From contig NZ_MEGH01000019.1 in assembly GCF_001725415.1 (NCBI RefSeq), positions 2,795 through 66,794 on the forward strand: a stretch of DNA of 64,000 nt, read 5' to 3'. The position numbers were made by a program, and so were the translations under genes. Under the pieces are notes generated by a model, which saw only the letters and a program-made list of their open reading frames with translations, was not told where the DNA came from and ran no database searches. The DNA is from Pseudonocardia sp. SCN 73-27 (GTDB lineage Bacteria; Actinomycetota; Actinomycetes; Mycobacteriales; Pseudonocardiaceae). The number at the start of each line of letters is the position of its first letter. Within the stretch, counting starts at the first letter, position 1. Below, one piece after another: positions 1-20,646 of this stretch.

Positions 1-1
1 G

Positions 2-814
2 GCCAAGCCGGGCGAGTTCGGCGGCGACGTCTCGCACCTCAACCTGCACAAGACGTTCTGCATCCCGCACGGTGGCGGCGGCCCCGGCGTCGGTCCGGTC
101 GCGGTGCGCGCGCACCTCGCGCCGTTCCTGCCCGGCGACCCGCTCGACCCGAAGGGCGGCCCCGTCTCCGCCGCCGCGTACGGCTCCGCCGGCATCCTGC
201 CGATCACCTACGCCTACATCGCGATGATGGGACCGGACGGCCTCACCAGGGCCACCGCGTCCGCGGTCCTGTCGGCCAACTACCTGGCGCGGCGCCTCGA
301 CGAGCACTACCCGGTCCTCTACACCGGCCCGGGCGGGCTGGTCGCGCACGAGTGCATCCTGGACCTGCGCGCGATCACCAAGCAGACCGGCGTCACCGCC
401 GAGGACGTCGCCAAGCGCCTCATCGACTACGGCTTCCACGCCCCGACGCTGTCGTTCCCTGTCGCGGGCACGCTGATGGTCGAGCCGACGGAGTCGGAGT
501 CGCTGGCCGAGATCGACCGCTTCATCGACGCGATGATCGCCATCAAGGGTGAGATCGACAAGGTCGGCGACGGCACGTGGCCGCTCGACGAGAGCCCGCT
601 GCGCAACGCGCCGCACACCGCCGACGTCGTCCTCGTCGAGAACTGGACGCGTCCCTACACCCGTGAGCAGGCGGCCTTCCCGGTGCCGGAGCTGCGCCGC
701 GCGAAGTACTGGCCGCCGATCGGCCGCATCGACGGTGCCAAGGGCGACCGCAACCTGGTCTGCTCCTGCCCCCCGCCCGAAGCCTTCGCCACCCCCGCCC
801 TGGAGACGTCATGA
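2..814 (+). CDS. gcvP: Glycine dehydrogenase (glycine cleavage P protein), C-terminal part; 5' end lies outside the window
   Basis: Frame is open from base 2. It carries the PLP-lysine motif [19 protein letters not shown], then [14 protein letters not shown] and the C-terminal GDRNLVCSC. Confidence 0.97.
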
Positions 815-1923
815 CCGCGAAGGACGACCTCGTCCGCACCCCGCTCGACGCCGAACACGAGCGCCTGGGGGCGACGTTCACCGACTTCGCCGGCTGGCGG
901 ATGCCGGTCCGGTACGACAGCGACCTCGCCGAGCACCACGCCGTCCGCAACTCGGCCGGCCTGTTCGACCTGTCCCACATGGGCGAGGTGGAGTTCGTCG
1001 GCCCGCAGGCCGCCGCGGCCCTCGACCACGCGCTCGCCGGGAAGCTCTCGGCGGTGAAGGTCGGCCGCGCCAAGTACTCGCTGCTGTGCGCACCCGACGG
1101 CGGCGTCCTCGACGACCTCGTCGTCTACCGCCTGGCCGACGACCGGTTCCTCGTCGTCGTCAACGCGTCCAACGCCGCACAGGACGCTGCCGAGCTCATC
1201 GCCCGCGCCAAGGGTTTCGACGTCGAGGTCACCGACCGCTCGGCCGGGACCGCGCTCATCGCCGTGCAGGGCCCGCACGCGCCCGACGTGCTGCGCACCG
1301 CCGAACCCGGCGTCGCGCCGATCATCGAGGAGCTGCGCTACTACGCGGCGGAGCCTGCGACGATCGCCGGCATCCACGTCCTGCTGGCTCGCACCGGCTA
1401 CACCGGTGAGGACGGTTTCGAACTCTACGTCTCCGACGAGCAGGCGCCGGCGTTGTGGAATGCTCTGCTCGCCGCGGGGGAAGAGCACGAACTGCGTCCC
1501 GCGGGCCTCGCCTGCCGCGACACCCTGCGGCTGGAGGCCGGCATGGCGCTCTACGGCCACGAGCTGACCTCGGAGACAAACCCCTTCTCCGCCGGGCTGC
1601 GCCGTGTCGTCGCCCTCGACAAGGAGTTCGTCGGCCGCGACGCGCTGGCCGCTCTCGCCGAGGATGAGCCGGACCAGGTCCTCGTCGGACTCACCGGTAC
1701 CGGCCGCCGCGCCGGCCGGGCGGAGGCGACCGTGCTGGGTCCCGACGACGCCGCCGTCGGTGTCGTCACCTCCGGTGTCCTGTCCCCGACGCTGGGCGTA
1801 CCGATCGCACTGGCCTACGTCGACCGGGGGCTGTCGGAGGTGGGCACCGAACTGCGTGTCGACGTCCGCGGCCGCAGCCAGGACTACACCGTCACCTCCC
1901 TCCCCTTCTACAAGCGCGCCTGA
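811..1923 (+). CDS. gcvT: Glycine cleavage aminomethyltransferase (T protein)
   Basis: Motifs [36 protein letters not shown] and C-terminal PFYKR; ATGA overlap with gcvP. Confidence 0.97.
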
Positions 1924-1954
1924 CCGTCCGGCCTCAGTCCCGAGAGGACCACCG

Positions 1955-2353
1955 ATGACCTCCCCCGACATCATCCCCGAGAACCTGAGCTACACCTCCG
2001 ACCACGAGTGGATCGCCGTCGAGCCGGGCGCCACCGCCTCCGGCGAGGTCCGCGTCGGCCTGTCGTCCGTCGCGACCGACGCGCTCGGCGAGATCGTGTT
2101 CGTCGACCTGCCGGCCGTCGGCACCGAGCTGACCGCGGGCGACGCCTGTGGCGAGATCGAGTCCACCAAGTCGGTGTCCGAGCTGGTCAGCCCCGCCAAT
2201 GGCACCGTCGTGTCGATCAACCCGGCGCTCGAGGACAACCCCGCCCTCGTGGGCGAGGACCCCTACGGCGAGGGCTGGCTGTTCACCGTCGAGGTCACGT
2301 CGCTGGGCAAGGTCCTCGACGCGGCCGCCTACCGCGCCGAGAACGAGGGGTGA
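1955..2353 (+). CDS. gcvH: Glycine cleavage H protein (lipoyl carrier)
   Basis: [17 protein letters not shown], lipoyl-lysine motif ESTKSVSEL and DPYGEGWL. Start set at ATG 1955 after GAGAGG. Confidence 0.96.
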
Positions 2354-2358
2354 CGGAC

Positions 2359-3651
2359 ATGTCCGAGGGAGTCCTCGACCAGTCCCTCGCCGACTTCGAC
2401 CCCGAGGTCGCCGCGCTCATCGGCCGCGAGCTCTCCCGCCAGCAGGACGGGCTGGAGATGATCGCGTCGGAGAACCACGCCCCACTCGCGGTCATGCAGG
2501 CGCAGGGCTCGGTCCTGACCAACAAGTACGCCGAGGGGTACCCGGGTCGTCGCTACTACGGCGGCTGCGAGTTCGTCGACGAGATCGAGACGCTCGCGCT
2601 CGACCGCATCAGGGCGCTCTTCGGGGCCGCGTACGCCAACGTGCAGCCCCACTCGGGTGCGCAGGCGAACGCCGCGGCGATGCAGGCGCTCATCAAGCCG
2701 GGCGACACCATCCTGGGCCTGTCGCTGGCCCACGGCGGGCATCTGACTCACGGCATGCGGATCAACTTCTCCGGCCTGCTCTACAACGTCGCCGCCTACG
2801 AGGTGTCCCCGGACGACTTCCGGGTCGACATGGACGAGGTCGAGCGGCTGGCCGAGGAGCACCAACCCCAGCTGATCATCGCCGGCTGGTCGGCCTACCC
2901 GCGCCGGCTCGACTTCGCGCGCTTCCGTCGGATCGCCGACGAGGTCGGCGCGTACCTGATGGTCGACATGGCGCACTTCGCCGGGCTCGTGGCCACCGGG
3001 CTGCACCCGTCGCCGGTGCCGCACGCGCACGTCACGACGTCGACGACGCACAAGACCCTCGGCGGCCCGCGCGGCGGCATCATCCTCACCAACGACGCCG
3101 CACTGGCCAAGAAGATCAACTCCGCGGTCTTCCCGGGTCAGCAGGGTGGTCCGCTGGAGCACGTCATCGCCGGCAAGGCGGCCGCCTTCAAGATGGCGGC
3201 CCAGCCGGAGTTCGTCGACCGCCAGCGCCGCACCCTCGAGGGCGCGCGCATCCTGGCAGAGCGCCTCACCGCCTCCGACGTCACCGATGCGGGCATCAGC
3301 GTCGTCTCCGGCGGCACCGACGTCCACCTCGTGCTGGTGAACCTCGGTGCCGACGGCATGGACGGCCGGCAGGCCGAGGACCGGCTCGCGGCCGTCGACA
3401 TCACGGTGAACCGCAACGCCGTCCCGTTCGACCCGCGCCCGCCGATGGTGACATCGGGGCTGCGAATCGGCACGGCGGCGCTGGCCACGCGTGGCTTCGA
3501 CACCGAGTCGTTCACCGCGGTCGCCGACGTCATCGCGCGTGCGCTGCTGCTGCCCGCCGACCTCCCGGCCGACGACGCGGCGATCGCCGGGCTGCGTGCC
3601 CAGGTCCAGGCGCTGGCGCGCAAGCACCCGCTCTACCCCGGCCTGGGGTGA
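2359..3651 (+). CDS. glyA: Serine hydroxymethyltransferase
   Basis: [37 protein letters not shown] and PLP motif [12 protein letters not shown]. Confidence 0.97.
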
Positions 3652-3655
3652 GCCC

Positions 3656-5035
3656 ATGACGGTCAGCGTGTTCGACCTGTTCTCGATCGGCATCGGCCCG
3701 TCGAGCTCGCACACGGTCGGTCCGATGCGGGCCGGTGCCCGCTTCGCCGAGGAGCTGGCCGCCGACGGCGTGCTCGACCAGGTCGCGGCGCTCGAGGTGA
3801 CCCTCTACGGGTCCCTCGCCGCGACCGGCGCCGGGCACGGCACGCTTCCCGCCGTCCTGCTCGGCCTCGAAGGCGGGTACCCCGACGTCGTGACCGGAGA
3901 GACGGTGCAGACCCGCACCGCGGAGATCGCCGACACGGGCCGGATCCGGCTCGGCGGCGTCCGAGAGGTGCCGCAGCGGATCGACGACATCGTGCTACGG
4001 CCCCGCACCGTCCTTCCCGAACACCCCAACGGGATGACCCTCACGGTCAGGGACGGTGCGGGCGCGACCCTGCGCGAGAGGACGTACTTCTCCGTCGGCG
4101 GCGGCTTCGTCCACGAGAAGGGCGAGGAACGGCCCGGTGGCGACGACGGGTCCGCGGGCCCGTTCGGCACGGCGGCGGAGCTGCTGGAGCGCTGCATCGA
4201 GTCCGGTTCGTCGATCAGCCAGGTGATGCTGGGCTTCGAGAGCTCGACGCGGTCGGAGGAGGAGGTCCGCAAGGGCCTGCTCGAGATCCGCGACGTCATG
4301 TGGGACTGCGTGGGTCGCGGCGTCACCTCCGACGGCGAACTGCCCGGCGGCCTCCACGTGAAGCGGCGCGCCCGAAGCTGGTACGAGCGGTTGCGGGTCG
4401 AGGACCCGCAGCGCGATCCCGGTTACGCACTCGACTGGGTCAACCTGGTCGCAATGGCCGTGAACGAGGAGAACGCCGCGGGTGGTCGCATCGTCACTGC
4501 ACCGACCAACGGTGCGGCGGGGATCATCCCGGCGGTCATGCACTACGCCACGCACTACACGCCGCTGGGGCTGTGCGACCCGGACGAGGCCGCGGTGCGC
4601 TTCCTGCTCGCCGCAGGGGCCATCGGCTCGTTGTACAAGGAGCTGGCCTCGATCTCGGGTGCCGAGGTGGGTTGCCAGGGCGAGGTCGGTTCGGCCGCGT
4701 CGATGGCGGCGGCCGGTCTGGCCGAGGTTCTGGCCGGCACGCCGGCGCAGGTCGAGAACGCGGCCGAGATCGCGATGGAACACAGCCTCGGGCTGACGTG
4801 CGACCCGATCGGGGGTCTCGTGCAGATCCCGTGCATCGAGCGCAACGCGATCTCGGCGGGCAAGGCGGTCAATGCGGCGCGGATGGCGCTGCGTGGCGAC
4901 GGCCGGCACCGTGTCTCGCTCGACCAGGTCATCATGACCATGCGTGAGACCGGTCGGGACATGAGTGACAAGTACAAGGAGACGTCCCGCGGCGGCCTGG
5001 CGCTCACCATTCCGGTGAACGTCATCGAGTGCTGA
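3656..5035 (+). CDS. sdaA: Fe-S-dependent L-serine dehydratase (single chain)
   Basis: [45 protein letters not shown] and [11 protein letters not shown]. Confidence 0.96.
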
Positions 5036-5108: not shown

Positions 5109-5846
5109 TCAGCGGCCGGGGAGCTCCTTGACGGCGCCTTCCATGACCAGCGAGTCGGTCGTGCTCACCAGGTGGGCGAGCATCGCGTCGGCCGCGGCCG
5201 GGGCGTCGCCCGAGCGGATCGCGTCGTAGATGCGACGGTGGTCGGCGAGCGACGTGGCCGGCTGGCCGCTGCGCGTCAGCGACGTGGCCGAGGTCCGGTC
5301 GAGCGCCTGGCGCATGCTGTCGAGCAGGCTGATCAGGATGGGGTTGTGCGACGCCGTCGCCACCCCGACGTGGAAGCGGCGGTCGCCGACGAGGCCTGCC
5401 TCGCCGGCGTCGATCTCGCGTTCCATGTCCTCGAGCGAGGCGGCGAGATTCTTGAGGTCGGACTCGGTGGCCCGGTGCGCAGCGAGGCGGGCGCACTGCG
5501 TCTCGAGCGCCTGGCGCGTCTCCCAGATGGCCGGGTGGTCGATATGGGTCTCGACGAGCTCGGCCGCGAGCGAGGGGATGAGGTCCTCGGGGCGGCGGAC
5601 GAGGTAGATGCCGTCGCCGTGGCGGACCTCGACCTCGCCACGGGCCCGCAGCGCGGTGATGGCCTCGCGGATCGAGGAGCGTCCGACCGAGAGCTGGCGT
5701 GCGAGGTCCCGCTCCGTCATGAGCCGGTCGCCCGGCTGGAGCTGGTTGACGTCGATGAACTCGCGCAGCCGGTCGCTGACCTGTTCGTACAGCGGTCTGC
5801 GGTCCACCGGCCTGATGGGGGCGATCGCCTGCCGGTCCTGACTCAT
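5109..5846 (-). CDS. GntR/FadR-family transcriptional regulator
   Basis: N-terminal wHTH (LQPGDRLMTERDLARQLSVGRSSIREA) and FCD domain (DRRFH...ASHN, DHRRIYDAI). Confidence 0.93.
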   Translation of the reverse strand: MSQDRQAIAPIRPVDRRPLYEQVSDRLREFIDVNQLQPGDRLMTERDLARQLSVGRSSIREAITALRARGEVEVRHGDGIYLVRRPEDLIPSLAAELVETHIDHPAIWETRQALETQCARLAAHRATESDLKNLAASLEDMEREIDAGEAGLVGDRRFHVGVATASHNPILISLLDSMRQALDRTSATSLTRSGQPATSLADHRRIYDAIRSGDAPAAADAMLAHLVSTTDSLVMEGAVKELPGR

Positions 5847-5892
5847 GACACCCCCACGAAGGCGATGCTCGCGCGATCGCCAGGTGATCTGC

Positions 5893-5905
5893 TGGTCCGA
5901 TCCTA
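5893..5905. promoter_or_regulatory. Degenerate FadR-type operator overlapping a candidate -10 (TAGGAT, minus strand) of the regulator gene
   Basis: TGGTCCGATCCTA resembles the two TGGTCTGACC sites downstream. Confidence 0.4.
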
Positions 5906-6130
5906 CCCCGCCGCGACAGCCCCACCCGGATGCCGTGGAGCGGCGGGCGGGACAGGAGATGAGGCGGTGGGGGAGATTCTCCGCGGAGGCGGCGCGGCAG
6001 TGGGTGCGCGCGCCGTGGCGGGAACCGCACCGTACGGTGAAATCGCCGGTGTCGTTGCGGCGCAACGGGTCGAGGTCGCGGCGACGCGCCGGCAGAGCAG
6101 GTAACGACCAGGTCACGGGCGATGAGATGG

Positions 6131-6169
6131 TTGACACACAGGGGGCTCGTCATCAAACTGGTCTGACCA
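6131..6169 (+). promoter_or_regulatory. Candidate sigma70 promoter (TTGACA-17-CAAACT) overlapped by FadR-type operator TGGTCTGACCA
   Basis: TTGACA 6131-6136, CAAACT 6154-6159, palindrome TGGT-N3-ACCA 6159-6169. Confidence 0.65.
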
Positions 6170-6243
6170 CCAGATGACCGTGCCATGCGATGCGGTGGTG
6201 AAACCCCGCCCCCTCTGCAAGACATGACAGCGAGGAGAATGAC

Positions 6244-6723
6244 GTGCGCGCTCTTGCGGCCCTCGGTTTGACGATCGGTGTTCTGGTCGGTGTGTGGGTC
6301 TACGTCAGTGGACTCGTCGACCTGCCTCCGTGGGTCACCGTCATCATCTGGGCCGGCTTCTTCGCCGCAGGCGGCAAGTTCGGAGGCGTCCTCAGGATGG
6401 GTGCCGCCAGCCTCTCCGGCGTGCTGTGGGCCTGGCTCGCGGTGACCATCGCCGGCCTCTTCGGTGGTGCGGCGTTCGCGCTGCCCGTCATGGTCGCGAT
6501 CGCCGCGTTCATCATGTGCGTCCAGGCCGGTTGGTCGCCCCTGTCGTTCATCCCGGGGACCTTCATGGGCGCCGCGTGTCTTTTCGGCACGTCGATCGAC
6601 GTCACGTCCACGGTGATCTGCATCGTGATAGGCCTCGTCCTCGGGTTCATCTCCGAGTGGTCTGCCGGCCTGATCAGCGGTGCCGGCGAGGAGACGACCG
6701 CCGACGCTGCAGCAGGCGCTTGA
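6244..6723 (+). CDS. DUF1097-like integral membrane protein
   Basis: Hydrophobic 159-aa protein with W..FFAAGG and FIPGTFMGAACLF motifs; GAGGAG RBS before GTG. Confidence 0.75.
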   Translation: MRALAALGLTIGVLVGVWVYVSGLVDLPPWVTVIIWAGFFAAGGKFGGVLRMGAASLSGVLWAWLAVTIAGLFGGAAFALPVMVAIAAFIMCVQAGWSPLSFIPGTFMGAACLFGTSIDVTSTVICIVIGLVLGFISEWSAGLISGAGEETTADAAAGA

Positions 6724-6733
6724 GTTGCTGTCC

Positions 6734-6748
6734 AAATTGGTCTGACCG
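6734..6748. promoter_or_regulatory. Second FadR-type operator, upstream of the glutamine-synthetase-like gene
   Basis: AAATTGGTCTGACCG versus AAACTGGTCTGACCA at 6155-6169. Confidence 0.6.
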
Positions 6749-6770
6749 CCTGACCTGTTAGGAGTAGTCG

Positions 6771-8204
6771 ATGGGTTCCACCTTCATCCAGCACCACGGC
6801 TTGTGGAGCGCTGAGCAGCAGGACCAGGCCGACAAGATCGCGGCCCAGGTCAAGGAGCAGGGCCTGCGCCAGGTCCGCGTCGCCTGGGGTGACCAGCACG
6901 GCATCCTGCGCGGCAAGACCCTCGAGGCGGGTCACTTCCTGTCGGTCCTGCGCAACGGCAAGGACTTCCAGACCGCCACCCTGATCTTCGACACCACGAA
7001 CAACCCGGCCGTGCCGCCGTTCGCGGCCGACGGCTTCGGCGACCCGCGCATGACCGGTCTGCCCGACGGTGTCCTCGTGCCCGACCCCGGCACCTTCCGC
7101 ATCCTGCCGTGGCTCGACAGGACCGGCTGGGTCCTGTGCAACCTGCACTACCGCTCCGGTGAGGTCGTCCCGTTCGACACCCGCGGCATCCTGCAGTCGC
7201 AGCTCTCGCAGCTGAAGAACGAGGGCTGGAACTTCCTCGCCGGCATCGAGCTCGAGTTCTACATCACCAAGCTCGAGGACCCGCGCCTGTCGTTCGAGCA
7301 GAGCGGCTACCCGCCGGACCCGCCCCAGGTCAGCGCCGTCTCCCACGGCTTCCAGTACCTGACCGAGAACCGTGGCGACGAGATCGCCGGCATCCTCGAC
7401 ATCCTGCGCGACAACGTGGTGGCCCTCGGCCTGCCGCTCGCCACCATCGAGGACGAGTGGGGCCCCGGCCAGACCGAGTTCACGTTCGACGTGATGGAGG
7501 GCCTGGAGGCCGCCGACTCGGCGATCCTGCTGCGCAGCGCCATCAAGCAGCTCTGCCGCCGCAACGGCTACCACGCCACCTTCATGTCCCGCCCGGCCCT
7601 GCCGAACGCGTTCTCGTCCGGCTGGCACCTGCACCAGTCGCTGGGCAACGCCGAGATCGGCAACGCCTTCCCCGGCGGCGACGACGAGGTCCTGTCGGAC
7701 ACCGGTCGCCACTGGATGGCCGGCCTGCTCGAGCACGCGCGCTCCTGCTCGCTGCTCAGCACTCCCACCGTCAACGGCTACAAGCGCTACCTGCCCGACT
7801 CGTTCGCCCCGGACCGCATCGCGTGGGCCGAGGAGAACCGCGGCGCGCTCATCCGCGTCGCCGGTGGCCGCGGCGACGCGAACACCCACCTGGAGAACCG
7901 CGTCGGCGAGCCGGCCGCGAACCCGTACCTGTACCTGGCCTCCCAGGTCATCTCGGGCCGCGACGGTCTGCGCAACAAGCTCGACCCCGGCCCCTCGGCC
8001 GACGAGCCGTACCAGGCCGAGGCCGAGCGCCTGCCGGGCTCCCTGGAGGAGTCGATCCAACTCTTCGAGCAGAGCAGCCTGCTCCGTACCGAGCTCGGTG
8101 ACCCGTTCATGGAGTACCTGTCGACGGTCAAGGGCAACGAGGTCAAACGCTTCAACTCGGCAGTGACCGACTGGGAGCAGCGCGAGTACTTCGAGGTCTA
8201 CTGA
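6771..8204 (+). CDS. Glutamine synthetase-like gamma-glutamyl:amine ligase (TdnQ/AtdA1-like)
   Basis: GIELEFY, EDEWGPGQTE, SGWHLHQSL, ENRGALIR and LENRVGEPAANPYL. The N-terminus (FIQHHGLWS..EQ, PDPGTFRILPWLDRTGWVLC) resembles TdnQ rather than GlnA1. Confidence 0.88.
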   Translation: MGSTFIQHHGLWSAEQQDQADKIAAQVKEQGLRQVRVAWGDQHGILRGKTLEAGHFLSVLRNGKDFQTATLIFDTTNNPAVPPFAADGFGDPRMTGLPDGVLVPDPGTFRILPWLDRTGWVLCNLHYRSGEVVPFDTRGILQSQLSQLKNEGWNFLAGIELEFYITKLEDPRLSFEQSGYPPDPPQVSAVSHGFQYLTENRGDEIAGILDILRDNVVALGLPLATIEDEWGPGQTEFTFDVMEGLEAADSAILLRSAIKQLCRRNGYHATFMSRPALPNAFSSGWHLHQSLGNAEIGNAFPGGDDEVLSDTGRHWMAGLLEHARSCSLLSTPTVNGYKRYLPDSFAPDRIAWAEENRGALIRVAGGRGDANTHLENRVGEPAANPYLYLASQVISGRDGLRNKLDPGPSADEPYQAEAERLPGSLEESIQLFEQSSLLRTELGDPFMEYLSTVKGNEVKRFNSAVTDWEQREYFEVY

Positions 8205-8205
8205 C

Positions 8206-9252
8206 GTGATCGACGACGCCGGCGCGGGGGTGCCGGGACTTCGGGTCCTGGCAGCCTCCCGTCTTCCGGACCCGGACCCGCGATCGACTCTCACGGTCGC
8301 GGCCGCCCAGCTCGGCGGACGGTGGCTCGACGTCGGTGCGCGCATGAAGCGTCTCGCGGAGGCGGCCCAGGTGGCCGCCTCCGCGGGGGCTCAGGTGCTC
8401 GCCTTCCCTGAGACCTACCTGTCCGGTTATCCCTTCTGGCTCACCCGTACGCACGGCGCCAACTTCGACGACGCTGCGCAGAAGCAGTGCTACGCCTACT
8501 ACCTCGACTCGGCGATCGAGGTCGGCGGTCCGGAACAGCGCGAGCTCGAGGCTCTCGCGACCGACCTCGGCCTGACGATGTACGTCGGGATCACCGAGCG
8601 TGGGCATGGCCCGGCCAGTGGGTCGACCTACTGCACGCTCCTGGCGATCAAGCCCGGCGACGGGCTCGTCGGCCACCACCGCAAGCTCGTCCCGACCTAC
8701 GACGAGCGTCTGGTGTGGGCGCAGGGCGACGGCGCGGGTCTGCGGACCCACGCGGTCGGCGCGGCTCGCGTCGGCGGGCTGAACTGCTGGGAGAACTGGA
8801 TGCCGCAGGCGCGGCACGCCCTGTACGCAGACGGCGAGCAGGTGCACTTCAGCACGTGGCCGGGCGCGAGCTCGATCTGTGCCGACGTCACCCGCTTCAC
8901 CGCACTGGAGGGTCGCGTCTTCGCGATCTCCACATCGGGCATCCTCACCCTCGACGACGTCCCGGACGACTTCCCGCTGCGCGACGAGCTGCACGCGAAC
9001 TCGTCGGAGATGCCGTTCGACGGTGGTTCGGGCATCGCCGCCCCGGACGGAACGTGGCTCGTCGAGCCCGTCAAGGGCGAGGAAGGCCTGATCGTGGCCG
9101 ATCTCGACCTCCGGCAGGTCGCGCAGGCCCGCCTGACCTTCGACCCGACCGGGCACTACAGCCGGCCGGACGTCTTCGGCGTCACCGTCGACCGCACCCG
9201 GCGGGAAGCGGTGTCGTTCACCGATTCGAGCGATTCCGAGGCGAAGCAGTGA
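8206..9252 (+). CDS. Nitrilase (branch 1-type carbon-nitrogen hydrolase)
   Basis: Catalytic triad FPETYLSGYPFW (Glu), HRKLVPT (Lys), LNCWENWMP (Cys); C-terminal DPTGHYSRPDV. Confidence 0.93.
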   Translation: MIDDAGAGVPGLRVLAASRLPDPDPRSTLTVAAAQLGGRWLDVGARMKRLAEAAQVAASAGAQVLAFPETYLSGYPFWLTRTHGANFDDAAQKQCYAYYLDSAIEVGGPEQRELEALATDLGLTMYVGITERGHGPASGSTYCTLLAIKPGDGLVGHHRKLVPTYDERLVWAQGDGAGLRTHAVGAARVGGLNCWENWMPQARHALYADGEQVHFSTWPGASSICADVTRFTALEGRVFAISTSGILTLDDVPDDFPLRDELHANSSEMPFDGGSGIAAPDGTWLVEPVKGEEGLIVADLDLRQVAQARLTFDPTGHYSRPDVFGVTVDRTRREAVSFTDSSDSEAKQ

Positions 9253-9968
9253 CTGACAGCGGAACGGCCCCCGGCGCCCGGGCGGCCGAGGACACGATCC
9301 TGGTCGTCCAGCACCAGGACGACGCCGGCCCCGGCAACCTGGGGGAATGGCTGACCGACAGCGGGCTCCCGTGGGAGCTCGTCGACGCGTCGGTCGGCCC
9401 TCTGCCGGCGCCCGCTCGGTTCCGCGCCCTCGTCGTCCTCGGCAGCCGTGAGGCCGCCTACGACGAGAACGTGGCGTGGCTCGAGGCAGAGAAGGACTTC
9501 GTCCGCGCGACGATGGCGCGCGGCACGCCCATGTTCGGCATCTGCTTCGGCGCCCAGCTCCTGGCGCTGCTGCTGGGCGGGACCGTACAGAAGGCCGCGA
9601 CCATCGAGCGCGGCTGGATCCCGGTCTCCCAGTCGGTCGACGCGTCCGAGGACGACTACGCCGAGCTGGTCGACCACACGTGGTTCGAATGGCACGGCGA
9701 CGAGATCACCGCGCCCGGCTCGGCGGAGATCCTCGCCAAGGGCAGCTGTGTGCAGGCGTTCCGCCAGGACGGGCACCTCGGCGTGCAGTTCCACCCCGAG
9801 GTGACCGAGACGCAGCTCGTCCAGTGGATGGACAGCGACCGTCGGCTCACGTTGCTCGCCGAGGCCGGCGGGGAGCGGGCCGACCTGCTGGCGGACACCG
9901 CGAAGCAGCTCCCCGACGCGATCCCCGCGGCGCACCGCCTCTACTCCCGGTTCTTCCTGGGCAGGTAG
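9249..9968 (+). CDS. Class I glutamine amidotransferase-like protein (candidate gamma-glutamyl hydrolase)
   Basis: GICFGAQ nucleophile elbow, WHGD and QFHPE; GTGA overlap with the nitrilase. Confidence 0.9.
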   Translation: MTDSGTAPGARAAEDTILVVQHQDDAGPGNLGEWLTDSGLPWELVDASVGPLPAPARFRALVVLGSREAAYDENVAWLEAEKDFVRATMARGTPMFGICFGAQLLALLLGGTVQKAATIERGWIPVSQSVDASEDDYAELVDHTWFEWHGDEITAPGSAEILAKGSCVQAFRQDGHLGVQFHPEVTETQLVQWMDSDRRLTLLAEAGGERADLLADTAKQLPDAIPAAHRLYSRFFLGR

Positions 9969-12097: not shown

Positions 12098-12679
12098 TCA
12101 CTTCTCTTCGGAGAGCACGTCGAGGTCGGGCACACCTGGTCTGACCAGGACGAGCATCACCTTCGTGGGCGCGTCGCCGTTGTTGGTCAGCTGGTGGCTC
12201 AGGTCGCCCGGGACCATCGCCACGTCGCCGGACTGCAGGTCGATCCGGTGCGTTCCCGATCGCACCTCGATCGCGCCCTCCATGACGATGAAGACCTCCT
12301 TGGCGCCCGGCGAGTGCGGGTGGAACGGGCCCGCGGAGCAGTGCGGGGGGAGCGTGTACCGCACGATCTCCACGCCTTCCAGAACCGGGAGCACCGACTC
12401 CCGGATCGCGCCCGTCTCGTCGTCGACGAGGCTGACGCCACCATCGCCCCGCACCACCTGGACCTCGGACGAGGCGCCCGCGACCGACAGCATCGTCGCC
12501 AGCGGGACCTGCAACGCATCGGCGATCCGTGCCGCCGACGACAGGCTGGGGTTCCGTTCGCCGCGTTCGATCTTCGACAGGGTCGCCCGGGACACGCCGC
12601 TGAGCGTCGCCAATGACTCGAGGCTCAGCCGTGCCTGGTGCCGGCGCAGGCGCAGGCGTGCTCCGAAGCTCGCATTCAC
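12098..12679 (-). CDS. XRE-family HTH regulator with C-terminal cupin
   Basis: LSLESLATLSGVSRATLSKIERGERNPS and cupin HSPGAKEVFIVMEG...GDLSH. Confidence 0.9.
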   Translation of the reverse strand: MNASFGARLRLRRHQARLSLESLATLSGVSRATLSKIERGERNPSLSSAARIADALQVPLATMLSVAGASSEVQVVRGDGGVSLVDDETGAIRESVLPVLEGVEIVRYTLPPHCSAGPFHPHSPGAKEVFIVMEGAIEVRSGTHRIDLQSGDVAMVPGDLSHQLTNNGDAPTKVMLVLVRPGVPDLDVLSEEK

Positions 12680-12690: not shown

Positions 12691-12742
12691 ATCACGGCCG
12701 GCCGTGAGGTCGGCGCGACCCGCACGTCAGGAGGAACTCCCG

Positions 12743-13066
12743 ATGCCCTTCGTCGTCACGACGGCCTGCCTCGACATCCTGGACCGCAGCTGCCTGGACC
12801 AGTGCCCGGTGGACTGCATCTACCTGGGTGAACGCATGACCTACATCAATCCGGACGAGTGCATCGACTGCGGAGCGTGTGAGCCGTCGTGTCCGCAGAA
12901 CGCGATCTTCCACATCGACGACCTGCCCGCGGAGGAGGCGCATCTCGCGCCCGTCGCGGAGAGGTTCCTGCGCACGATGCGCGCGGTCGGCGGCAACATC
13001 GACCGCGGGCCGCTCGGCGCGGACCCGCCGGAGATCGCGGCACTGTCGCCGCGCGCCCAGGACTGA
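12743..13066 (+). CDS. FdxA-type [3Fe-4S]/[4Fe-4S] ferredoxin
   Basis: C..ILDRSCLDQCPVDCIY and CIDCGACEPSCP; GGAGG RBS. Confidence 0.92.
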   Translation: MPFVVTTACLDILDRSCLDQCPVDCIYLGERMTYINPDECIDCGACEPSCPQNAIFHIDDLPAEEAHLAPVAERFLRTMRAVGGNIDRGPLGADPPEIAALSPRAQD

Positions 13067-13273
13067 GTGAGGCGCGCGGCGGCGTCGCCGACGTCGCCTT
13101 CCCGGGGGCGGGCAGTTCGGACGCGGCGTCCGCGGCGAGTCGGCCCGTCGGGACACCCGGCCGACCCCGTTCACGGTGCCGGCGCACGACAGGCGACCTG
13201 CGACGAAGCCGGGCGAACCCTGCAGCGACGAACTCGGTCCGGATCCGGCGAGAGTGTTGACCGACACACCCCA

Positions 13274-13291
13274 TGTGTAGATACTTCTTGC
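13274..13291 (+). promoter_or_regulatory. Second copy of the 18-mer, upstream of the MHS transporter
   Basis: TGTGTAGATACTTCTTGC. Confidence 0.6.
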
Positions 13292-13318
13292 TCACAAGAC
13301 TCTTCTAGTGGAGGTCGT

Positions 13319-14683
13319 ATGTCTGGCGAGACGGCCAAGTTGGACACACCAGTGTCGGCACGAAAGATCGCGCTCGCGAGCGCGATCGGGACGACCATCG
13401 AGTGGTACGACTTCCTGATCTATGCGACCGCTGCATCGCTGGTCTTCGGCAAGATCTTCTTTCCGACCGGCTCGGCCCTCGTGAGCAGCCTGCTCGCGGT
13501 GTCGACCATCGGCGCCGGCTTCCTCGCCCGGCCCCTCGGCGCGATCGTGCTGAGCAACTACGGTGACAAGGTCGGCCGCAAGTCCCTGCTCGTCGGGACA
13601 CTCGGCGCGATGGGCATCGCGACCACTTTGATCGGCCTGCTGCCGACCTACGCCCAGATCGGTATCTGGGCGCCGATCCTGCTGGTGCTGCTGCGCCTCG
13701 TGCAGGGGATCGCGGTCGGTGGCGAGTGGGGCGGCGCCGTGCTGATGGCGATCGAGCACGCGCCGCGCAACCGTCGCGGCTTCTACGGCAGCCTCGTGCA
13801 GATCGGGTTCCCCGTAGGCATGGCGCTCGGGACGTTCTCGTTCCTGCTGCTGGCCCTGCTGCCCGAACCGCACTTCCTGTCGTGGGGCTGGCGCATCCCG
13901 TTCCTCGTCAGCGCGGTCCTCGTGGTGGTCGGGCTCGTCATCCGGCTCAAGGTCACGGAGTCACCGGAGTTCGAGGCGTCGCGGGAGAAGGGCGAGCTCG
14001 TCAAGTACCCGGTGTGGGAGGCGGTGCGCAGGCACCCCAAGAACCTGCTCATCGGCCTGGGTGCGCGCATCACCGAGCTGTCGTGGATCTACGTTCTCAC
14101 GATCTTCGCGCTCGAGTTCGCGACCCACACCCTGCACATCCCGCGGACCTTGGTCCTCGCGGCGATCGGGATCGGTGCGCTGCTCGAGCTCGTCACCGTT
14201 CCGTTGTGCGGGGCGCTGTCCGACCGCGTCGGGCGCCGCGCCATCTACATCGCCGGGTCGGTCGCGGCCGGGCTGCTCGCGTTCCCTGTCTTCTGGGCCA
14301 TCGCCAGCCGTGAGGGCTGGGCCGTCGTGCTCGCGTTCACGATCGGCATGGCCGTCGGGCACGGCGTCATGTACGGCGTGCAGGCGAGTTTCCTGTCGGA
14401 GATGTTCGGCGCCAACGTCCGCTACAGCGGGGCGTCGCTGGGCTACCAGCTCGCCGCGCCCATCGGCGGCGGCCTGGTGCCGGTACTCGCGACCTGGATC
14501 GTCGGCGTCTCGGGCGGCACGTGGGGCGTGTCGGTGATGATGATCGTGCTCGCGCTGATCACCGTCGTCGCCGTCTACTTCGCAAAGGAGACGGCCGCTG
14601 GGAAGGCTGGGGGCACGAGTTCCGCGCACTCCGACAGCACCCAGAGCGTCTCTCCTCCGGGGGAGATCACCGTCACGTCGTGA
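13319..14683 (+). CDS. MFS transporter, MHS (metabolite:H+ symporter, ShiA-like) family
   Basis: GTTIEWYDF, GDKVGRK, RLVQGIAVGGEWGGA and WGWRIPFL; about 12 TM segments. Confidence 0.93.
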   Translation: MSGETAKLDTPVSARKIALASAIGTTIEWYDFLIYATAASLVFGKIFFPTGSALVSSLLAVSTIGAGFLARPLGAIVLSNYGDKVGRKSLLVGTLGAMGIATTLIGLLPTYAQIGIWAPILLVLLRLVQGIAVGGEWGGAVLMAIEHAPRNRRGFYGSLVQIGFPVGMALGTFSFLLLALLPEPHFLSWGWRIPFLVSAVLVVVGLVIRLKVTESPEFEASREKGELVKYPVWEAVRRHPKNLLIGLGARITELSWIYVLTIFALEFATHTLHIPRTLVLAAIGIGALLELVTVPLCGALSDRVGRRAIYIAGSVAAGLLAFPVFWAIASREGWAVVLAFTIGMAVGHGVMYGVQASFLSEMFGANVRYSGASLGYQLAAPIGGGLVPVLATWIVGVSGGTWGVSVMMIVLALITVVAVYFAKETAAGKAGGTSSAHSDSTQSVSPPGEITVTS

Positions 14684-16462: not shown

Positions 16463-16666
16463 TCAGCCCACGATCCGCAGCGACAACAGCGGTGCGCCGA
16501 TGTCGCGGACGGCGGCGAGGACGCCGTGGAGGCGGGCCTGGTCGGGCATCGGTCCGGTGAGGGTCGAGGTGCCGTCGGGGTGACGGGCGAGGACGAGGTC
16601 GCCGAGCAGCGGGGACCAGTGGTCGTCGAGGTGGCCGGCGACGCGGAGCTCGTAGGTGGCGCTCAC
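16463..16666 (-). CDS. Small 67-aa conserved-looking protein (companion of MalT-like regulator cassette)
   Basis: MSATYELRVAGHLDDHW...GPMPDQARLHGVLAAVRDIGAPLLSL; GTGA overlap with the upstream gene. Confidence 0.7.
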   Translation of the reverse strand: MSATYELRVAGHLDDHWSPLLGDLVLARHPDGTSTLTGPMPDQARLHGVLAAVRDIGAPLLSLRIVG

Positions 16667-17286
16667 GCGGGTGTCCGAACAGGACGCCTGATGATCCACT
16701 CCGCGACCGCCAGGTTCACGATCCAACCGGCTCCGTTCGCGAGGTCGGTGACCCACACGCCGGTGCCGAACACGGCGGTGCCGAGGCCGATCGTCAGGAC
16801 CTGGGTGCCGGCGGCGAGGGCGATCGCGTAGGCGCGGATCATCCACGCCCGGTGCGCGGCCAGGGCACGACGTCGGACGGCCGCGACGCCGAGCACCAGG
16901 CACGCGGCCTGCGCCGAGCCGAACACCAGCCGCAGCAGGTACAGCAGATCGCCGGTGCCCGGCTTCGGCGGCGTGAACAGCGTCATCCACAGCGCCGATC
17001 CGGCTACGACCAGCCCCGCCGTGACGACGACCTTGCCGGCGCGGCGGTGCCAGCCGCCGCGGCGCAGCGCCGGGACGAACTGGGCGGCCCCGCCGAGCAC
17101 GAACACCGCCGCGCCGAGGACGTGCAGCACCACGGGAAGCGGCCCGGCGTCGAAGCGGGGGTCGGTGGGCACGACGGCGGGTCCGCCGGCGAGCTGCAGC
17201 AGCCGCAGCCCGCCCACCGTCAGGGGAATCGCCGCGAGGGCGACGAGCGCCCCCGCGATCGCCCACGACCGGACGGCCGTCGTCAT
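16663..17286 (-). CDS. DUF2306-like membrane protein
   Basis: LHVLGAAVF..GAAQF, WHRRAGK and AHRAWMIRAYA; ATGA overlap. Confidence 0.82.
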   Translation of the reverse strand: MTTAVRSWAIAGALVALAAIPLTVGGLRLLQLAGGPAVVPTDPRFDAGPLPVVLHVLGAAVFVLGGAAQFVPALRRGGWHRRAGKVVVTAGLVVAGSALWMTLFTPPKPGTGDLLYLLRLVFGSAQAACLVLGVAAVRRRALAAHRAWMIRAYAIALAAGTQVLTIGLGTAVFGTGVWVTDLANGAGWIVNLAVAEWIIRRPVRTPA

Positions 17287-17948
17287 CGGACCGCGGGCGC
17301 GTCGACAACCGGTGTGGTCTCGGGGCGGCCCTGCCACAGCGAGACGCCGAGCCCGATCAGCGCGACGGCGACCGGGAGCGCGGCCAGCCGCAGCAGCGAG
17401 TGCGGAACCAGCGGCGCGGCCAGGGTGAGGACGGGCCCGACGGCCAGCAGCGCCGACGCCCACCGGGCGAGGACCCGGGCGCGGAACAGGGTGATGCCGA
17501 GCAGGACGCCGCCGACGAGGTAGAGCGCGAACGACGCCGGGCCGACCATGGCCACGGCGCCGAGGTCGCCGGTGTCGCCGCCACCGGGGATCGCGAGGAT
17601 CTCCGCGGCGACGCCCGGTGCGGTACCGGCCAGCTCGGGCAGCACGAACGCCTCGACGAACGTGTATGCCGTCGTCACGAGGTAGAAGCCGCTGAACGCC
17701 AGCCATCCGACGAGGCCGGCGACGCCGACCCGCCGCGCCTGGCTCAGGTACAGCCCGGCGGTCCCGGCGAGGCCGAGGACGGCCATCAGCAACGTCAGGT
17801 AGTGGGTGACGGCCCAGCCGGTGGTCGTGACGGCAGCGACCGTCTCGGCGGGGTGGATGAACTGTACGAACCCGAACAGCAGGCCGGACGCCGCGGCGGC
17901 GAGGCCCGCGGCCCGCGTGAGGCCGGTGACGGTGACGGTGACGGTCAT
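17283..17948 (-). CDS. Multi-pass membrane protein of unknown function
   Basis: Hydrophobic 221-aa ORF with GC3 bias, coupled to DUF2306. Confidence 0.75.
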   Translation of the reverse strand: MTVTVTVTGLTRAAGLAAAASGLLFGFVQFIHPAETVAAVTTTGWAVTHYLTLLMAVLGLAGTAGLYLSQARRVGVAGLVGWLAFSGFYLVTTAYTFVEAFVLPELAGTAPGVAAEILAIPGGGDTGDLGAVAMVGPASFALYLVGGVLLGITLFRARVLARWASALLAVGPVLTLAAPLVPHSLLRLAALPVAVALIGLGVSLWQGRPETTPVVDAPAVR

Positions 17949-18015
17949 GTCTGCTCCCAGGCGTATCGGTGTCCGGTGTGCCGCAGACGTTATGGACCGA
18001 CATGGTGAGCGCACA

Positions 18016-18031
18016 TCACATGACGATGTGA
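18016..18031. promoter_or_regulatory. Palindrome TCACAT-N4-ATGTGA between MalT-like regulator and its downstream operon
   Basis: Perfect 6-bp inverted repeat in a 97-bp gap. Confidence 0.55.
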
Positions 18032-18045
18032 CCCGGGCCCACGGC

Positions 18046-20646
18046 TCAGAGCAGGCCGAGCTCACCCGCCCGGCGGACCGCGGCGCGGCGGGTGTTCACG
18101 TCGAGCTTGGTGAAGATCGCCTTGGTGTGAGTGCGCAGCGTGTTGACGGTGACGAACAGGCTGCGGGCGATCTCGGGCCCCGTGAGGTCGGTGGCGAGCA
18201 GCCGCAGGACGTCGAGCTCGCGGGCGCTCAGCAGGTCCTCGTGCGCGGAGACGCTGCGGCCCAACGGGTTCGGGATGCGGGCGAGCAAGTCGGCCAGCGC
18301 CGGGCCCTCGTCGAGGAACAGCCGGGCGAACCCGGCTGGGACACCGGCGTCGAGAGCGGCGGTGAGCTCGGCGACGGCGTCGTCGACCCGACCGTTCGCC
18401 TGGTGGAGCTGCGCCCGCAGCATCCGCACCTCGACGACGCTGCCGTCGCGCTGCCCGCGACGGGCGTCGTCCTCGATGCGGTCGAGGGCTTCGGCGATCC
18501 CGTGCGTGTCCTGCGTGAGCCGCAGCCGGACGAGCGTCAGGCGGTCGAACTCGGCCAGGTAGGACACCGGCCCGTCCAGCGTGAGCGACGCGAGCGACTC
18601 CGCGGCCTCGTCGAGGCGGCCCGCGGCGATGAGCACTCTGGCCCGCATCGACCGGATCGGCCGGACGTCGGGGAAGAACCCGGGCAGGTGCAACGTCGCG
18701 GCCCGGTCGAGCAGGGCCAGCGCGTCGTCGAGGTCCCCGCGGGCGCGCGCGATCCCGGCCGCCGTCGTGAACCAGCGGTACCGGTTCTCCAGCAGCGACG
18801 CGGCCTCGCCCAGGTCCCGGGCGGCCTGCAGGTGCTCGTCGGCGGCAGTCGGCGCGTCGTGCTCGCGCAGCACGTCGGCGAGGGCGACGTGCAGGTCGCC
18901 GGTCGTCGTCAGCGGGGTGTCGCCGGCCCTCTCGAGCGCCCGTTCCAGGAGCCGCCGCGCCTGGACGGGCCGGCCGCGGGCCTGCCACATCTCGGCGAGG
19001 ACGACGGTCGCGCCCAGCTCGTCGGCGACGTTCCCGGCCGCGGCGAGGCTCGCGACGGCGTCGGTGAAGGTGTCGACGGCCGTCGCCATTTCGCCCTCGG
19101 CCCACGCCGCGAGCCCCAGGAAACCGGCGGCTCCGCCGCGGGCGAGGTGGTCGCGCGGCCCGGCGAGGCCGAGGGCGCGGCGGGCATGGGTGACGGTCCC
19201 GGCGGTGTCACCGCGCGCCTGCGCCACGGACGCCCGATAGATCGCGACGGTCGCAGGCAGCGCACGGAGCTCGTCGTCACGGGCGGTGACCCGCGCCGGG
19301 TCGCCGGGGATCGCCGCGGCCGGGCGTTCCAGAGCGGTCTCCGCGGCGTCGAGCCAGGTGTCGACGCCGTCGAGGTCGCCCACCGACAGCCGTGACCAGG
19401 CCGCGGTGGTCGCAAGCAGCGCTCGGCCGCGGACCTCGTCGGCGGGCAGGTCGTACAGCCAGGCACGCAGCGTCCGGTCCTCGCGGCGCTGCCGCAGCTC
19501 GGGCAGCCCGAGCTCGACGAGATCGGCGGCGAACCCCGTGTCGTCCCCGGTGATCGCGTGGCCGACGGCGTCGGCGAGGTCGCCGTGGGTGGCGTGCCAG
19601 CGGGCAGCGGCCCGGTGCAGTGCCGCGACCCGGCCCGGGGACGCCGCCGTCAGCCTCGCGCGCAACGCCTCGGCGAACAGGTGGTGGTAGCGGTACCAGG
19701 TGCGCCGGCCGTCGAGCGGCACGACGAACACGTTCTCCCGCTCCAGCGTCGCGAGCATCTCCGCGCCGTCGTCGCGGCCTGTCAGCGCGTCGCAGAGCGG
19801 GCCGGTGAGCTGATGCAGCACCGACGTCGCCAGCAGGAAGTCGCGGACGTCGTCGCTGCGCCGACGCAGCACCTCCTCGACGAGGTAGTCGAGGACGAAC
19901 CGGTGGCTGCCGGTGAAGTCGTCGACGAACCGGTCGACGTCGTCCTGGCCGCGCAGCGTGAGCGCCGCGAGCTGGAGCCCGGCGGCCCAGCCCTCGGTCC
20001 GCGCGCCGAGGGCGGCGACGTGCGCGTCGGTGAGGTCGAGACCCATGACGTCGGTGAGGAACTCGGCTGCCTCGGCGGGGGTGAAGCGCAGGTCGGCCGC
20101 GCGCAGCTCGACCAGCTCGTCGCGCACCCGCAGCCGCGGCAACGGCAGCGGGGGATCGGCCCGGGTCGCGACGGCCAGCGTCACCCCGGCCGGCATGCGG
20201 TCGAGCAGGTAGGTGACGCACGCGTGGACCGCCGGGTCGTCGACGACGTGGTAGTCGTCCAGCGCCAGTACCGTCGCGCCGGGCAGCTGGTCGAGGTCGT
20301 CGACCAGCGGCGCCAGGAGCGTCTCGACGGGTGGGAGCCGGTCGCCGGCGAGCTGCGCCGCCGTCGCGACACCGACCTCGGGTGCGACCGTCTGCAACGC
20401 AGCGACGACGTGGGTGACGAAGCGCCGCAGGTCGTTGTCGGCGGCGTCCAGCGACAGCCACGCCGTCCTCGTGGCAGGCGTCGAGGCCAGCCACTGCGCA
20501 AGCGCCGTCGTCTTGCCGAAGCCCGCCGGCGCCGAGACCAGCACCAGCCGCGGGGTGCCGCGCCGCACGTCGTCGAGGATGCGTGGCCGGGCCACGAGGC
20601 GCCTGCGCGGCGCCGGGACCCGGACCTTCGTCCCCGGAACCGGCAT
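18046..20646 (-). CDS. MalT-like STAND ATPase / TPR / LuxR-HTH transcriptional regulator
   Basis: Walker A APAGFGKTT, Walker B LALDDYH, RTEGWAAGLQL, WYRYHHLF and C-terminal LSARELDVL...NTLRTHTKAIFTKL. Confidence 0.94.
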   Translation of the reverse strand: MPVPGTKVRVPAPRRRLVARPRILDDVRRGTPRLVLVSAPAGFGKTTALAQWLASTPATRTAWLSLDAADNDLRRFVTHVVAALQTVAPEVGVATAAQLAGDRLPPVETLLAPLVDDLDQLPGATVLALDDYHVVDDPAVHACVTYLLDRMPAGVTLAVATRADPPLPLPRLRVRDELVELRAADLRFTPAEAAEFLTDVMGLDLTDAHVAALGARTEGWAAGLQLAALTLRGQDDVDRFVDDFTGSHRFVLDYLVEEVLRRRSDDVRDFLLATSVLHQLTGPLCDALTGRDDGAEMLATLERENVFVVPLDGRRTWYRYHHLFAEALRARLTAASPGRVAALHRAAARWHATHGDLADAVGHAITGDDTGFAADLVELGLPELRQRREDRTLRAWLYDLPADEVRGRALLATTAAWSRLSVGDLDGVDTWLDAAETALERPAAAIPGDPARVTARDDELRALPATVAIYRASVAQARGDTAGTVTHARRALGLAGPRDHLARGGAAGFLGLAAWAEGEMATAVDTFTDAVASLAAAGNVADELGATVVLAEMWQARGRPVQARRLLERALERAGDTPLTTTGDLHVALADVLREHDAPTAADEHLQAARDLGEAASLLENRYRWFTTAAGIARARGDLDDALALLDRAATLHLPGFFPDVRPIRSMRARVLIAAGRLDEAAESLASLTLDGPVSYLAEFDRLTLVRLRLTQDTHGIAEALDRIEDDARRGQRDGSVVEVRMLRAQLHQANGRVDDAVAELTAALDAGVPAGFARLFLDEGPALADLLARIPNPLGRSVSAHEDLLSARELDVLRLLATDLTGPEIARSLFVTVNTLRTHTKAIFTKLDVNTRRAAVRRAGELGLL

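Follow-up and report, generated by a model that had tools for sequence, protein, structure and literature searches.

A candidate gamma-glutamylation operon with a nitrilase as its middle enzyme beside the glycine cleavage genes of Pseudonocardia sp. SCN 73-27

Gamma-glutamylation is known as a transient handle for putrescine, isopropylamine, ethanolamine, anilines and naphthylamine, and to our knowledge the middle step, by which the tagged compound is altered, is oxidative in every one of these cases. Here, we analyse an operon in a 64,000-nucleotide stretch of Pseudonocardia sp. SCN 73-27 (contig NZ_MEGH01000019.1, positions 2,795 to 66,794; the whole stretch is called the window, G+C content ~71%), in which a glutamine synthetase (GS)-like ligase, a nitrilase and a class-I glutamine amidotransferase (GATase)-like protein are encoded in succession. 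An earlier interpretation made from the letters of the window (the sequence-only reading) had proposed a gamma-glutamylation pathway for an amino-nitrile. On balance, we lean towards an operon that would glutamylate, hydrolyse and deglutamylate a small substrate carrying both an amine and a nitrile, as a catabolic or detoxification pathway repressed by a GntR-type protein. The strategy itself is known; what would be new is a hydrolytic nitrilase as its middle enzyme. In the full-text literature we found no account of a nitrilase paired with a GS-like or gamma-glutamyl enzyme, or of aminoacetonitrile together with a nitrilase, most subscription journals lying outside this search.

Relatives were sought by a nitrilase scan of one genome per species followed by tblastn on the loci, and the synteny census comprises 80 loci plus the loci reached through protein look-ups. 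All nitrilases at least 62% identical to that of the window have a ligase gene immediately 5′ of their own, as do more distant nitrilases from Patulibacter, a Solirubrobacteraceae metagenome-assembled genome (MAG), an actinobacterial MAG, Azorhizobium oxalatiphilum and an Acidocella MAG. The sequence-only reading had made its case dependent on the co-conservation of nitrilase and ligase, and in synteny and trees this linkage held: 19 of 19 nitrilases of two sub-clades in a 93-row nitrilase tree (built, like the ligase tree, by a quick method) have the ligase directly 5′. Ligase linkage requires two changes on this tree compared with a mean of 17.5 after shuffling, and none of 500 shuffles gave a value as low. 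The ligase tree recovers the same sub-clades, and in many loci the genes are spaced by 1–50 nt. Because linkage is clustered on the one tree and the other tree matches it, the ligase–nitrilase pair is, on phylogenetic grounds, inherited and transferred as a unit.

The hosts are Pseudonocardia, Amycolatopsis, Streptomyces, mycobacteria, Solirubrobacterales and two Alphaproteobacteria, and one copy of the module lies on a 408-kb plasmid of Streptomyces tendae. The module is rare and patchy, a ligase of more than 60% identity being found in one of 400 genomes sampled across the phylum, and it is absent from the sampled genomes of the same genus and the same family. Clustering of open reading frames (ORFs) over 19 loci returned the ligase, the nitrilase, the GntR/FCD regulator, the GATase and the DUF1097 protein as the only recurring families. 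In Mycolicibacterium the order is GntR–ligase–nitrilase–DUF1097, with no GATase. An empty-site comparison with a genome of the same genus (G653) gave no clean insertion boundary, the gcv/sdaA region being arranged otherwise there.

The ligase matches NpaA1, a 1-naphthylamine gamma-glutamylating enzyme (PDB 8WWU), with 471 bits, whereas true GS structures score at most 172 bits, and it is 45.8% identical to the NpaA1 of plasmid pJS3066. It falls under the NCBIfam equivalog cut-off of PuuA (NF045547; 226 versus 650 bits) and under the GlnA cut-off (TIGR00653; 210 versus 429 bits), and in the ligase tree it is sister to the NpaA1/DcaQ group. Structure match, identity and tree all place the enzyme where it had been expected, on the TdnQ/AtdA1/NpaA1 side of the GS-like family, and its metal, ATP and glutamate motifs are intact (GIELEFY, IEDEWGPGQ, GWHLHQS, NGYKRY and LENRVGE). 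By homology, it is a member of the organic-amine glutamylating (GoaS) family, to which NpaA1, AtdA1, TdnQ, DcaQ, PuuA and IpuC belong. The organic-amine site of GoaS enzymes is built from an N-terminal loop, the “15th motif”, together with aromatic residues of the tunnel (PMC11335346), and the amine-site residues of NpaA1 were taken from that source and transferred onto our alignment. The loop is present in the ligase of the window, and the equivalents of NpaA1 F75′, F86′, E232, E234 and W235 are conserved. The amine-pocket loop reads KDFQTATLIFDTTNNPAVPPF compared with SEVAIGPFFFDLVSSMVFNLF in NpaA1, its remaining residues being more polar; it is also more polar than that of DcaQ and resembles the loop of ligases paired with amine oxidases or flavin monooxygenases (FMOs). 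Among nitrilase-linked ligases KDFQTATLIFDTTNNPAVPPF is nearly invariant, which suggests a common substrate head-group. The position of NpaA1 V201 was rejected as a pocket marker, tyrosine being the family default there, DcaQ included.

The catalytic residues of the nitrilase are E69, K160, E167 and C194, in the motifs FPETY, HRKLVPT, YDER and NCWENW, and all four are invariant across 23 homologues. The intact E-K-C triad of a branch-1 nitrilase, as claimed from the sequence alone, is thus present together with a second glutamate (E167). The closest solved structures are true nitrilases, plant NIT4, Nit6803 and cyanide (di)hydratases (116–164 bits), and by fold, residues and CWE motif the protein is assigned as a branch-1 nitrilase. 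It scores below the equivalog cut-off of the Nit6803 family (TIGR04048; 172.9 versus 502.6 bits) and is an equivalog of no named family in NCBIfam. Sister nitrilases without a ligase have TerD, alpha/beta hydrolases, a luciferase-like enzyme and LysR as neighbours, which gave no clue to a substrate.

Partners of other ligases inside or beside this clade are an FMO, an amine oxidase with a short-chain dehydrogenase/reductase (SDR), a PNPOx protein with an SDR and an aldehyde dehydrogenase (ALDH), and Rieske dioxygenase alpha subunits; the NpaA and DcaQ ligases are paired with full dioxygenase systems. That the middle step of the sister systems is oxidative, as had been stated beforehand, agrees with the FMO, amine oxidase, SDR/ALDH and Rieske enzymes in that position. 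Because related ligases pair there with enzymes that act on the far end, the nitrilase would occupy the slot for altering the tagged amine, and this position is the main reason to regard the gamma-glutamyl adduct of an amine-plus-nitrile compound as its likely substrate. The clade as a whole looks like a toolbox of glutamylate-then-modify pathways, most of them uncharacterised. The nearest non-nitrilase partners are an FMO with a 685-aa protein (L084), an amine oxidase with an SDR in a Puu-like arrangement (L085), and PNPOx, SDR and aldehyde dehydrogenase in an amino-alcohol-like one (L131). On plasmid p1-WH99 of Prescottella equi (L112, 1517–8026), a GATase, an AmiS/UreI channel, an amidase, a GS-like ligase and an acetyl-CoA synthetase are flanked by MocR-type regulators; this operon is a further undescribed, putative gamma-glutamylation module, perhaps for a small amide or amine.

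All five genes of the sequence-only reading were recovered in place with Pfam and NCBIfam, and the locus is laid out as follows (window coordinates).

1–5035, plus strand: context genes, namely the gcvP C-terminus, gcvT (811–1923), gcvH (~1955–2353), glyA (~2359–3651) and sdaA (~3656–5035)
5109–5849, minus strand, divergent from the operon: GntR-family regulator with FCD effector domain, FadR subfamily (Pfam GntR 57 bits, FCD 103 bits)
6159–6169: predicted operator 1, palindrome TGGTCTGACCA, 75 nt 5′ of the DUF1097 start (from the sequence)
6244–6723, plus strand: DUF1097 six-helix membrane protein (Pfam PF06496, 99 bits)
6738–6747: predicted operator 2, TGGTCTGACC, 24 nt 5′ of the GS-like start (from the sequence)
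6771–8204, plus strand: GS-like gamma-glutamyl-amide synthetase, GoaS type (PF00120 Gln-synt_C, 270 bits)
8206–9252, plus strand: branch-1 nitrilase, CN_hydrolase (PF00795, 132 bits)
9249–9968, plus strand: stand-alone class-I GATase-like hydrolase (PF00117, 55 bits)

The stop codon of the GS-like gene (TGA, 8202–8204) is separated by a single nucleotide from the GTG start of the nitrilase gene at 8206, and the nitrilase TGA and the GATase GTG share GTGA at 9249–9252 (4-nt overlap). The 47-nt gap between the DUF1097 and GS-like genes contains the operator and an AGGAG ribosome-binding site. The regulator probably starts at MSQDRQ, giving 246 aa, the same length as its relatives. A consensus scan for promoters and terminators gave no matches in this high-GC region. 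The DUF1097 protein has a counterpart with 88% identity in Pseudonocardia sp., and at the P. benzenivorans locus nitrilase and ligase are 88–91% identical to those of the window. The genes 3′ of the operon encode a MarR protein (minus strand), a class II aldolase, an HTH-cupin regulator, a 4Fe-4S ferredoxin and a major facilitator superfamily (MFS) transporter, and none of these recurs at other loci in the ORF clustering. The statement that no oxygenase is adjacent held as well, none being co-conserved with the operon.

The GATase carries a catalytic triad of C99 (in GICFG) and H182/E184 (in FHPE). Its nearest structures are the stand-alone GATase 7D54 of M. smegmatis (E 2e-25) and, more distantly, the plant gamma-glutamyl peptidase GGP1 (E 7e-7). 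Its alignments with NpaA2, DcaT and a PuuD-like protein cover only part of the length and show 26–32% identity (~26% for NpaA2 and the PuuD-like protein), and its match to Peptidase_C26 is limited to a stretch of 38 residues. We propose it as a putative gamma-glutamyl hydrolase. The trio of ligase, nitrilase and GATase had been expected to be syntenic; the ligase–nitrilase pair is conserved, whereas only 10 of 18 related loci contain the GATase, which is therefore no universal third member. The amidotransferase of the aniline system is said, in work of Takeo and colleagues from 2013, to reverse glutamylation rather than to finish the pathway.

DUF1097 genes are present in five of the 18 loci and recur beside the ligase–nitrilase pair in Amycolatopsis, Streptomyces, Mycolicibacterium and Azorhizobium. 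The AlphaFold2 (AF2) model of the protein has six helices (predicted local distance difference test, pLDDT, 91.9), and in a fold search it matched only the transmembrane domain of ALMT1, a malate channel of plants, and that weakly (E 0.73, TM 0.53). The protein is a probable channel or transporter for the substrate, and the operon context supplies the first candidate role for the DUF1097 family, that of a channel admitting a small nitrogen-containing compound.

Orthologues of the GntR/FCD regulator (54–77% identical, tblastn) flank the GS–nitrilase pair in 14 of 17 tabulated loci. The remaining three (L015, L032 and L070) gave no tblastn match to the regulator, and in L015 Pfam finds a GntR plus FCD gene beside the pair. 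With its winged-helix GntR and FCD domains and a T.GT-N-AC.A-type palindrome near promoters, the regulator fits the FadR subfamily of GntR proteins. Palindromes of the family TGGTC(T/A)GACC, that is TGGTCTGACC(A), lie before the DUF1097 gene and before the ligase gene, and we infer that they are operators bound by the GntR protein. The TGGTCTGACCA motif is found 5′ of the first operon gene in L001, L002, L081, L105, L116 and L134, and TGGTCTGACC is conserved 5′ of the ligase gene in L001, L004, L005, L116 and L134. The palindrome is kept in place in Amycolatopsis, Streptomyces, some Mycobacterium loci and other Pseudonocardia, and variant palindromes replace it in mycobacteria (Mycolicibacterium, GGTGATCTGATCACC) and in Solirubrobacterales (TTGGTCGACCAA); the gene that follows it in S. 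phaeochromogenes encodes a YaaH-type channel. Genome-wide, 17 operator sites were counted, four of them within 15 kb. A third copy of TGGTCTGACC in the window (12137–12146) falls within the HTH-cupin gene (12098–12679, minus strand), at its 3′ end; it was set aside as probably non-functional, but it contributes to this local clustering of the motif.

Read as a pathway for an amino-nitrile, the operon would work in four steps. The DUF1097 protein would admit the compound, and the GS-like ligase would use ATP to join the amine of the substrate to the gamma-carboxyl group of glutamate. The nitrilase would then hydrolyse the nitrile group of the gamma-glutamylated compound to a carboxylate and ammonia, and the GATase-like hydrolase would free glutamate and an ordinary amino acid, a last step that a general gamma-glutamyl peptidase might take over in genomes without the GATase. 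The polar and near-invariant amine loop, the small channels, the dispensable hydrolase and the lack of recurring downstream genes favour a small aliphatic amino-nitrile that would give a common amino acid. In particular, the recurrence of only five families, with no dedicated downstream genes among them, fits a central metabolite as product.

As leading substrate candidate we tentatively name aminoacetonitrile, which would be converted via gamma-Glu-Gly to glycine for the adjacent cleavage genes; other short amino-nitriles, such as 3-aminopropionitrile, would be alternatives. Alpha-aminonitriles are Strecker-type adducts of aldehydes, ammonia and cyanide. They are weak bases (pKa ~5.3), as are the anilines on which the nearest characterised ligases act, and acylation of the nitrogen makes them more stable and improves them as nitrilase substrates. 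In a salvage route, gamma-glutamylation would lock the labile, weakly basic amine, and the nitrilase would then yield the gamma-glutamyl amino acid. Aminoacetonitrile inhibits glycine decarboxylation according to Usuda (1980), as cited in PMC12457704. A possible, if still doubtful, interpretation is that the module is a dedicated salvage or detoxification route for alpha-aminonitriles with aminoacetonitrile as prototype, and that in Pseudonocardia and some Streptomyces it would lie beside gcv because its product is glycine and its substrate poisons glycine decarboxylase.

The placement directly 3′ of gcvPTH-glyA-sdaA was corroborated: gcvP (C-terminus), gcvT and sdaA were identified by Pfam, gcvH and glyA through annotated relatives and tblastn. 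The gcvPTH-glyA-sdaA genes abut the module in four Pseudonocardia-type contigs, the window included, and the S. phaeochromogenes group has a rearranged copy of it that adjoins gcvT-gcvP and sdaA; gcv linkage was seen in these two lineages only. A glycine riboswitch (Rfam, 54.8 bits) lies 5′ of gcvP just outside the window (G000 contig C19:523–614), and a perfect copy of TGGTCTGACCA is located ~120 nt 5′ of it, between lipA and gcvP (C19:394–404, locus L115), both elements being 2.2–2.4 kb before the window start. The lipA–gcvP copy is also found in the close relative L116.

Several further observations concern this neighbourhood. In the S. phaeochromogenes group (L081:3323–3879), four glycine-riboswitch aptamers, arranged as two tandem pairs in series, lie 5′ of gcvP-gcvT, and this gene pair adjoins sdaA, the YaaH-type channel gene and a ligase–nitrilase–GATase–GntR module. 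Second copies of gcvP (67%), gcvH (66%) and glyA (50%) are present in G000 on contigs C15, C55 and C32, and the only canonical gcvT and the only sdaA of the genome are those beside the operon. In L116 (97% identical ligase), split nitrile hydratase (NHase)-alpha-like, NHase-beta-like, amidase and rhodanese genes follow ~3 kb 3′ of the operon (16534–20569), where the window has the 4Fe-4S ferredoxin (12704–13066) and MFS transporter (13067–14683) genes. These L116 genes may form a nitrile, cyanide or thiocyanate island, which hints at a wider nitrile or cyanide theme in the neighbourhood.

A number of points weigh against the amino-nitrile pathway or against aminoacetonitrile as its substrate. 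The adjacency to gcv and sdaA in two lineages agrees with the aminoacetonitrile claim of the sequence-only reading, but ~15 other loci have no gcv genes within the flanks examined (at most 10 kb). Neither P. benzenivorans nor the Streptomyces locus has the operator on the lipA–gcvP side, and co-regulation of gcv by the GntR protein was on this ground kept as weak evidence only. The GATase gene is lacking in eight of the 18 loci. Among specificity-determining positions, only D166 and F271 set ligase-linked nitrilases apart, and no gamma-glutamyl-binding signature emerged. Branch-1 nitrilases commonly take free nitriles, so that the supposed need for glutamylation is argued from gene order and co-inheritance only, and the nearest characterised ligases act on aromatic amines, which would leave room for an aromatic amino-nitrile. 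Finally, we know of no documented natural soil source of aminoacetonitrile.

Four rival explanations all rank below the amino-nitrile pathway. The last point but one leads to the best placed of them, in which the substrate is an aromatic amino-nitrile such as aminobenzonitrile or a herbicide-derived cyano-aniline, and the operon a xenobiotic cassette like atd, tdn or npa that would release an aminobenzoate. Anilines and naphthylamine are the substrates of NpaA1 and DcaQ, the closest ligases to have been characterised, and the copy on the S. tendae plasmid and the patchy distribution (one in 400 genomes) would suit such a cassette. We nevertheless regard it as unlikely, because no aromatic-ring catabolic genes recur nearby, the amine loop exceeds those of NpaA1 and DcaQ in polarity and is akin to that of amine-oxidase- or FMO-paired ligases, transport would fall to small channels (DUF1097, YaaH type), and the cross-phylum conservation of regulator and operators argues for an old natural substrate.

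Somewhat less probable still is that the CN-hydrolase is an amidase acting on the distal amide of a gamma-glutamylated amino-amide, or that the substrates of ligase and CN-hydrolase are unrelated and only the regulator is common. Some enzymes of the nitrilase superfamily are indeed amidases, specificity is not readable from sequence, and one related ligase locus combines the ligase with an amidase-signature enzyme and an AmiS/UreI channel. All best structural relatives, however, are branch-1 nitrilases or cyanide (di)hydratases, for which CWENW is typical, and the strict co-inheritance and the translational coupling argue for a single pathway.

The assimilation of cyanamide or another N-cyano compound ranks lower again, and we consider it improbable. 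The ligase would form N5-cyano-glutamine, the nitrilase would convert it to a carbamate that loses CO2 to give glutamine, and the GATase would be a glutaminase. Such a route would account for the GATase-free loci, glutamine needing no special hydrolase, as well as for the lack of recurring downstream catabolic genes; it also agrees with the GATase being closest to a stand-alone mycobacterial GATase crystallised with glutamine, and cyanamide is both a plant natural product and a fertiliser. On the other hand, as an amine nucleophile cyanamide is very poor, and the aromatic residues conserved in the tunnel point to a cationic amine. The route would also leave unexplained why two lineages have the operon beside gcv/sdaA, and we know of no nitrilase that acts on N-cyano groups. 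A biosynthetic module making a gamma-glutamyl metabolite or signal is very improbable, for although gamma-glutamylation serves as a protecting group in some antibiotic pathways (butirosin, fosfazinomycin), the FadR-type GntR repressor with predicted operators overlapping promoter regions, the membrane channel, the lack of conserved biosynthetic neighbours and a hydrolase that, where present, would take the glutamyl group off again all speak against it.

If the amino-nitrile pathway is correct, a conserved nitrilase version would bring hydrolytic nitrile chemistry into the gamma-glutamylation strategy and would give a first physiological setting to a clade of so far unassigned nitrilases and GS-like proteins in mycobacteria, Streptomyces and other soil bacteria. 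With aminoacetonitrile as substrate, the module would tie cyanide-adduct chemistry to glycine metabolism. It would also be of interest for biocatalysis, where nitrilases accepting N-acyl amino-nitriles are sought for amino-acid synthesis.

Compared with known systems, the operon shares with the arylamine pathways of NpaA1, AtdA1, TdnQ and DcaQ a homologous ligase (46% identity and 471 bits to NpaA1) with identical tunnel and amine-site residues, a class-I GATase-like gene within the operon and, as predicted here, a glutamylation that precedes the transformation. It differs in that the middle enzyme is a hydrolytic nitrilase and not a Rieske dioxygenase, in the more polar amine loop, in a GATase only ~26% identical to NpaA2 and in a GntR/FCD regulator, where LysR is seen in pNB8c; in the comparison with atd, tdn, dca and npa, no Rieske gene was found in or beside the operon, and no ring-cleavage genes, and in each of the 19 related loci a nitrilase occupies the place of the dioxygenase. 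With plant NIT4 and bacterial branch-1 nitrilases (Nit6803, cyanide dihydratase) the nitrilase has the fold, the E-K-E-C residues and a C-terminal extension in common, but it is ~30–35% identical at most and its gene always lies 3′ of a GS-like ligase gene. The GATase shares with GGP1 and 7D54 the stand-alone class-I GATase fold and the Cys-His-Glu triad, although the relation is distant; GGP1 cleaves gamma-glutamyl isopeptide bonds of conjugates. The closest mechanistic analogy is the Puu pathway of E. coli, with PuuA as ligase, PuuB as oxidase, PuuC as dehydrogenase and PuuD as hydrolase. The ligase lies far under the PuuA cut-off, the distal group would be hydrolysed here and is oxidised there, the hydrolase is a GuaA-type GATase and no clear Peptidase_C26 member, and the operon contains no Puu-type oxidase or aldehyde dehydrogenase. 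The scheme, however, would be the same in both: one end of a small, bifunctional aliphatic amine receives the glutamate, the other end is altered, and removal of the glutamate leaves an amino acid.

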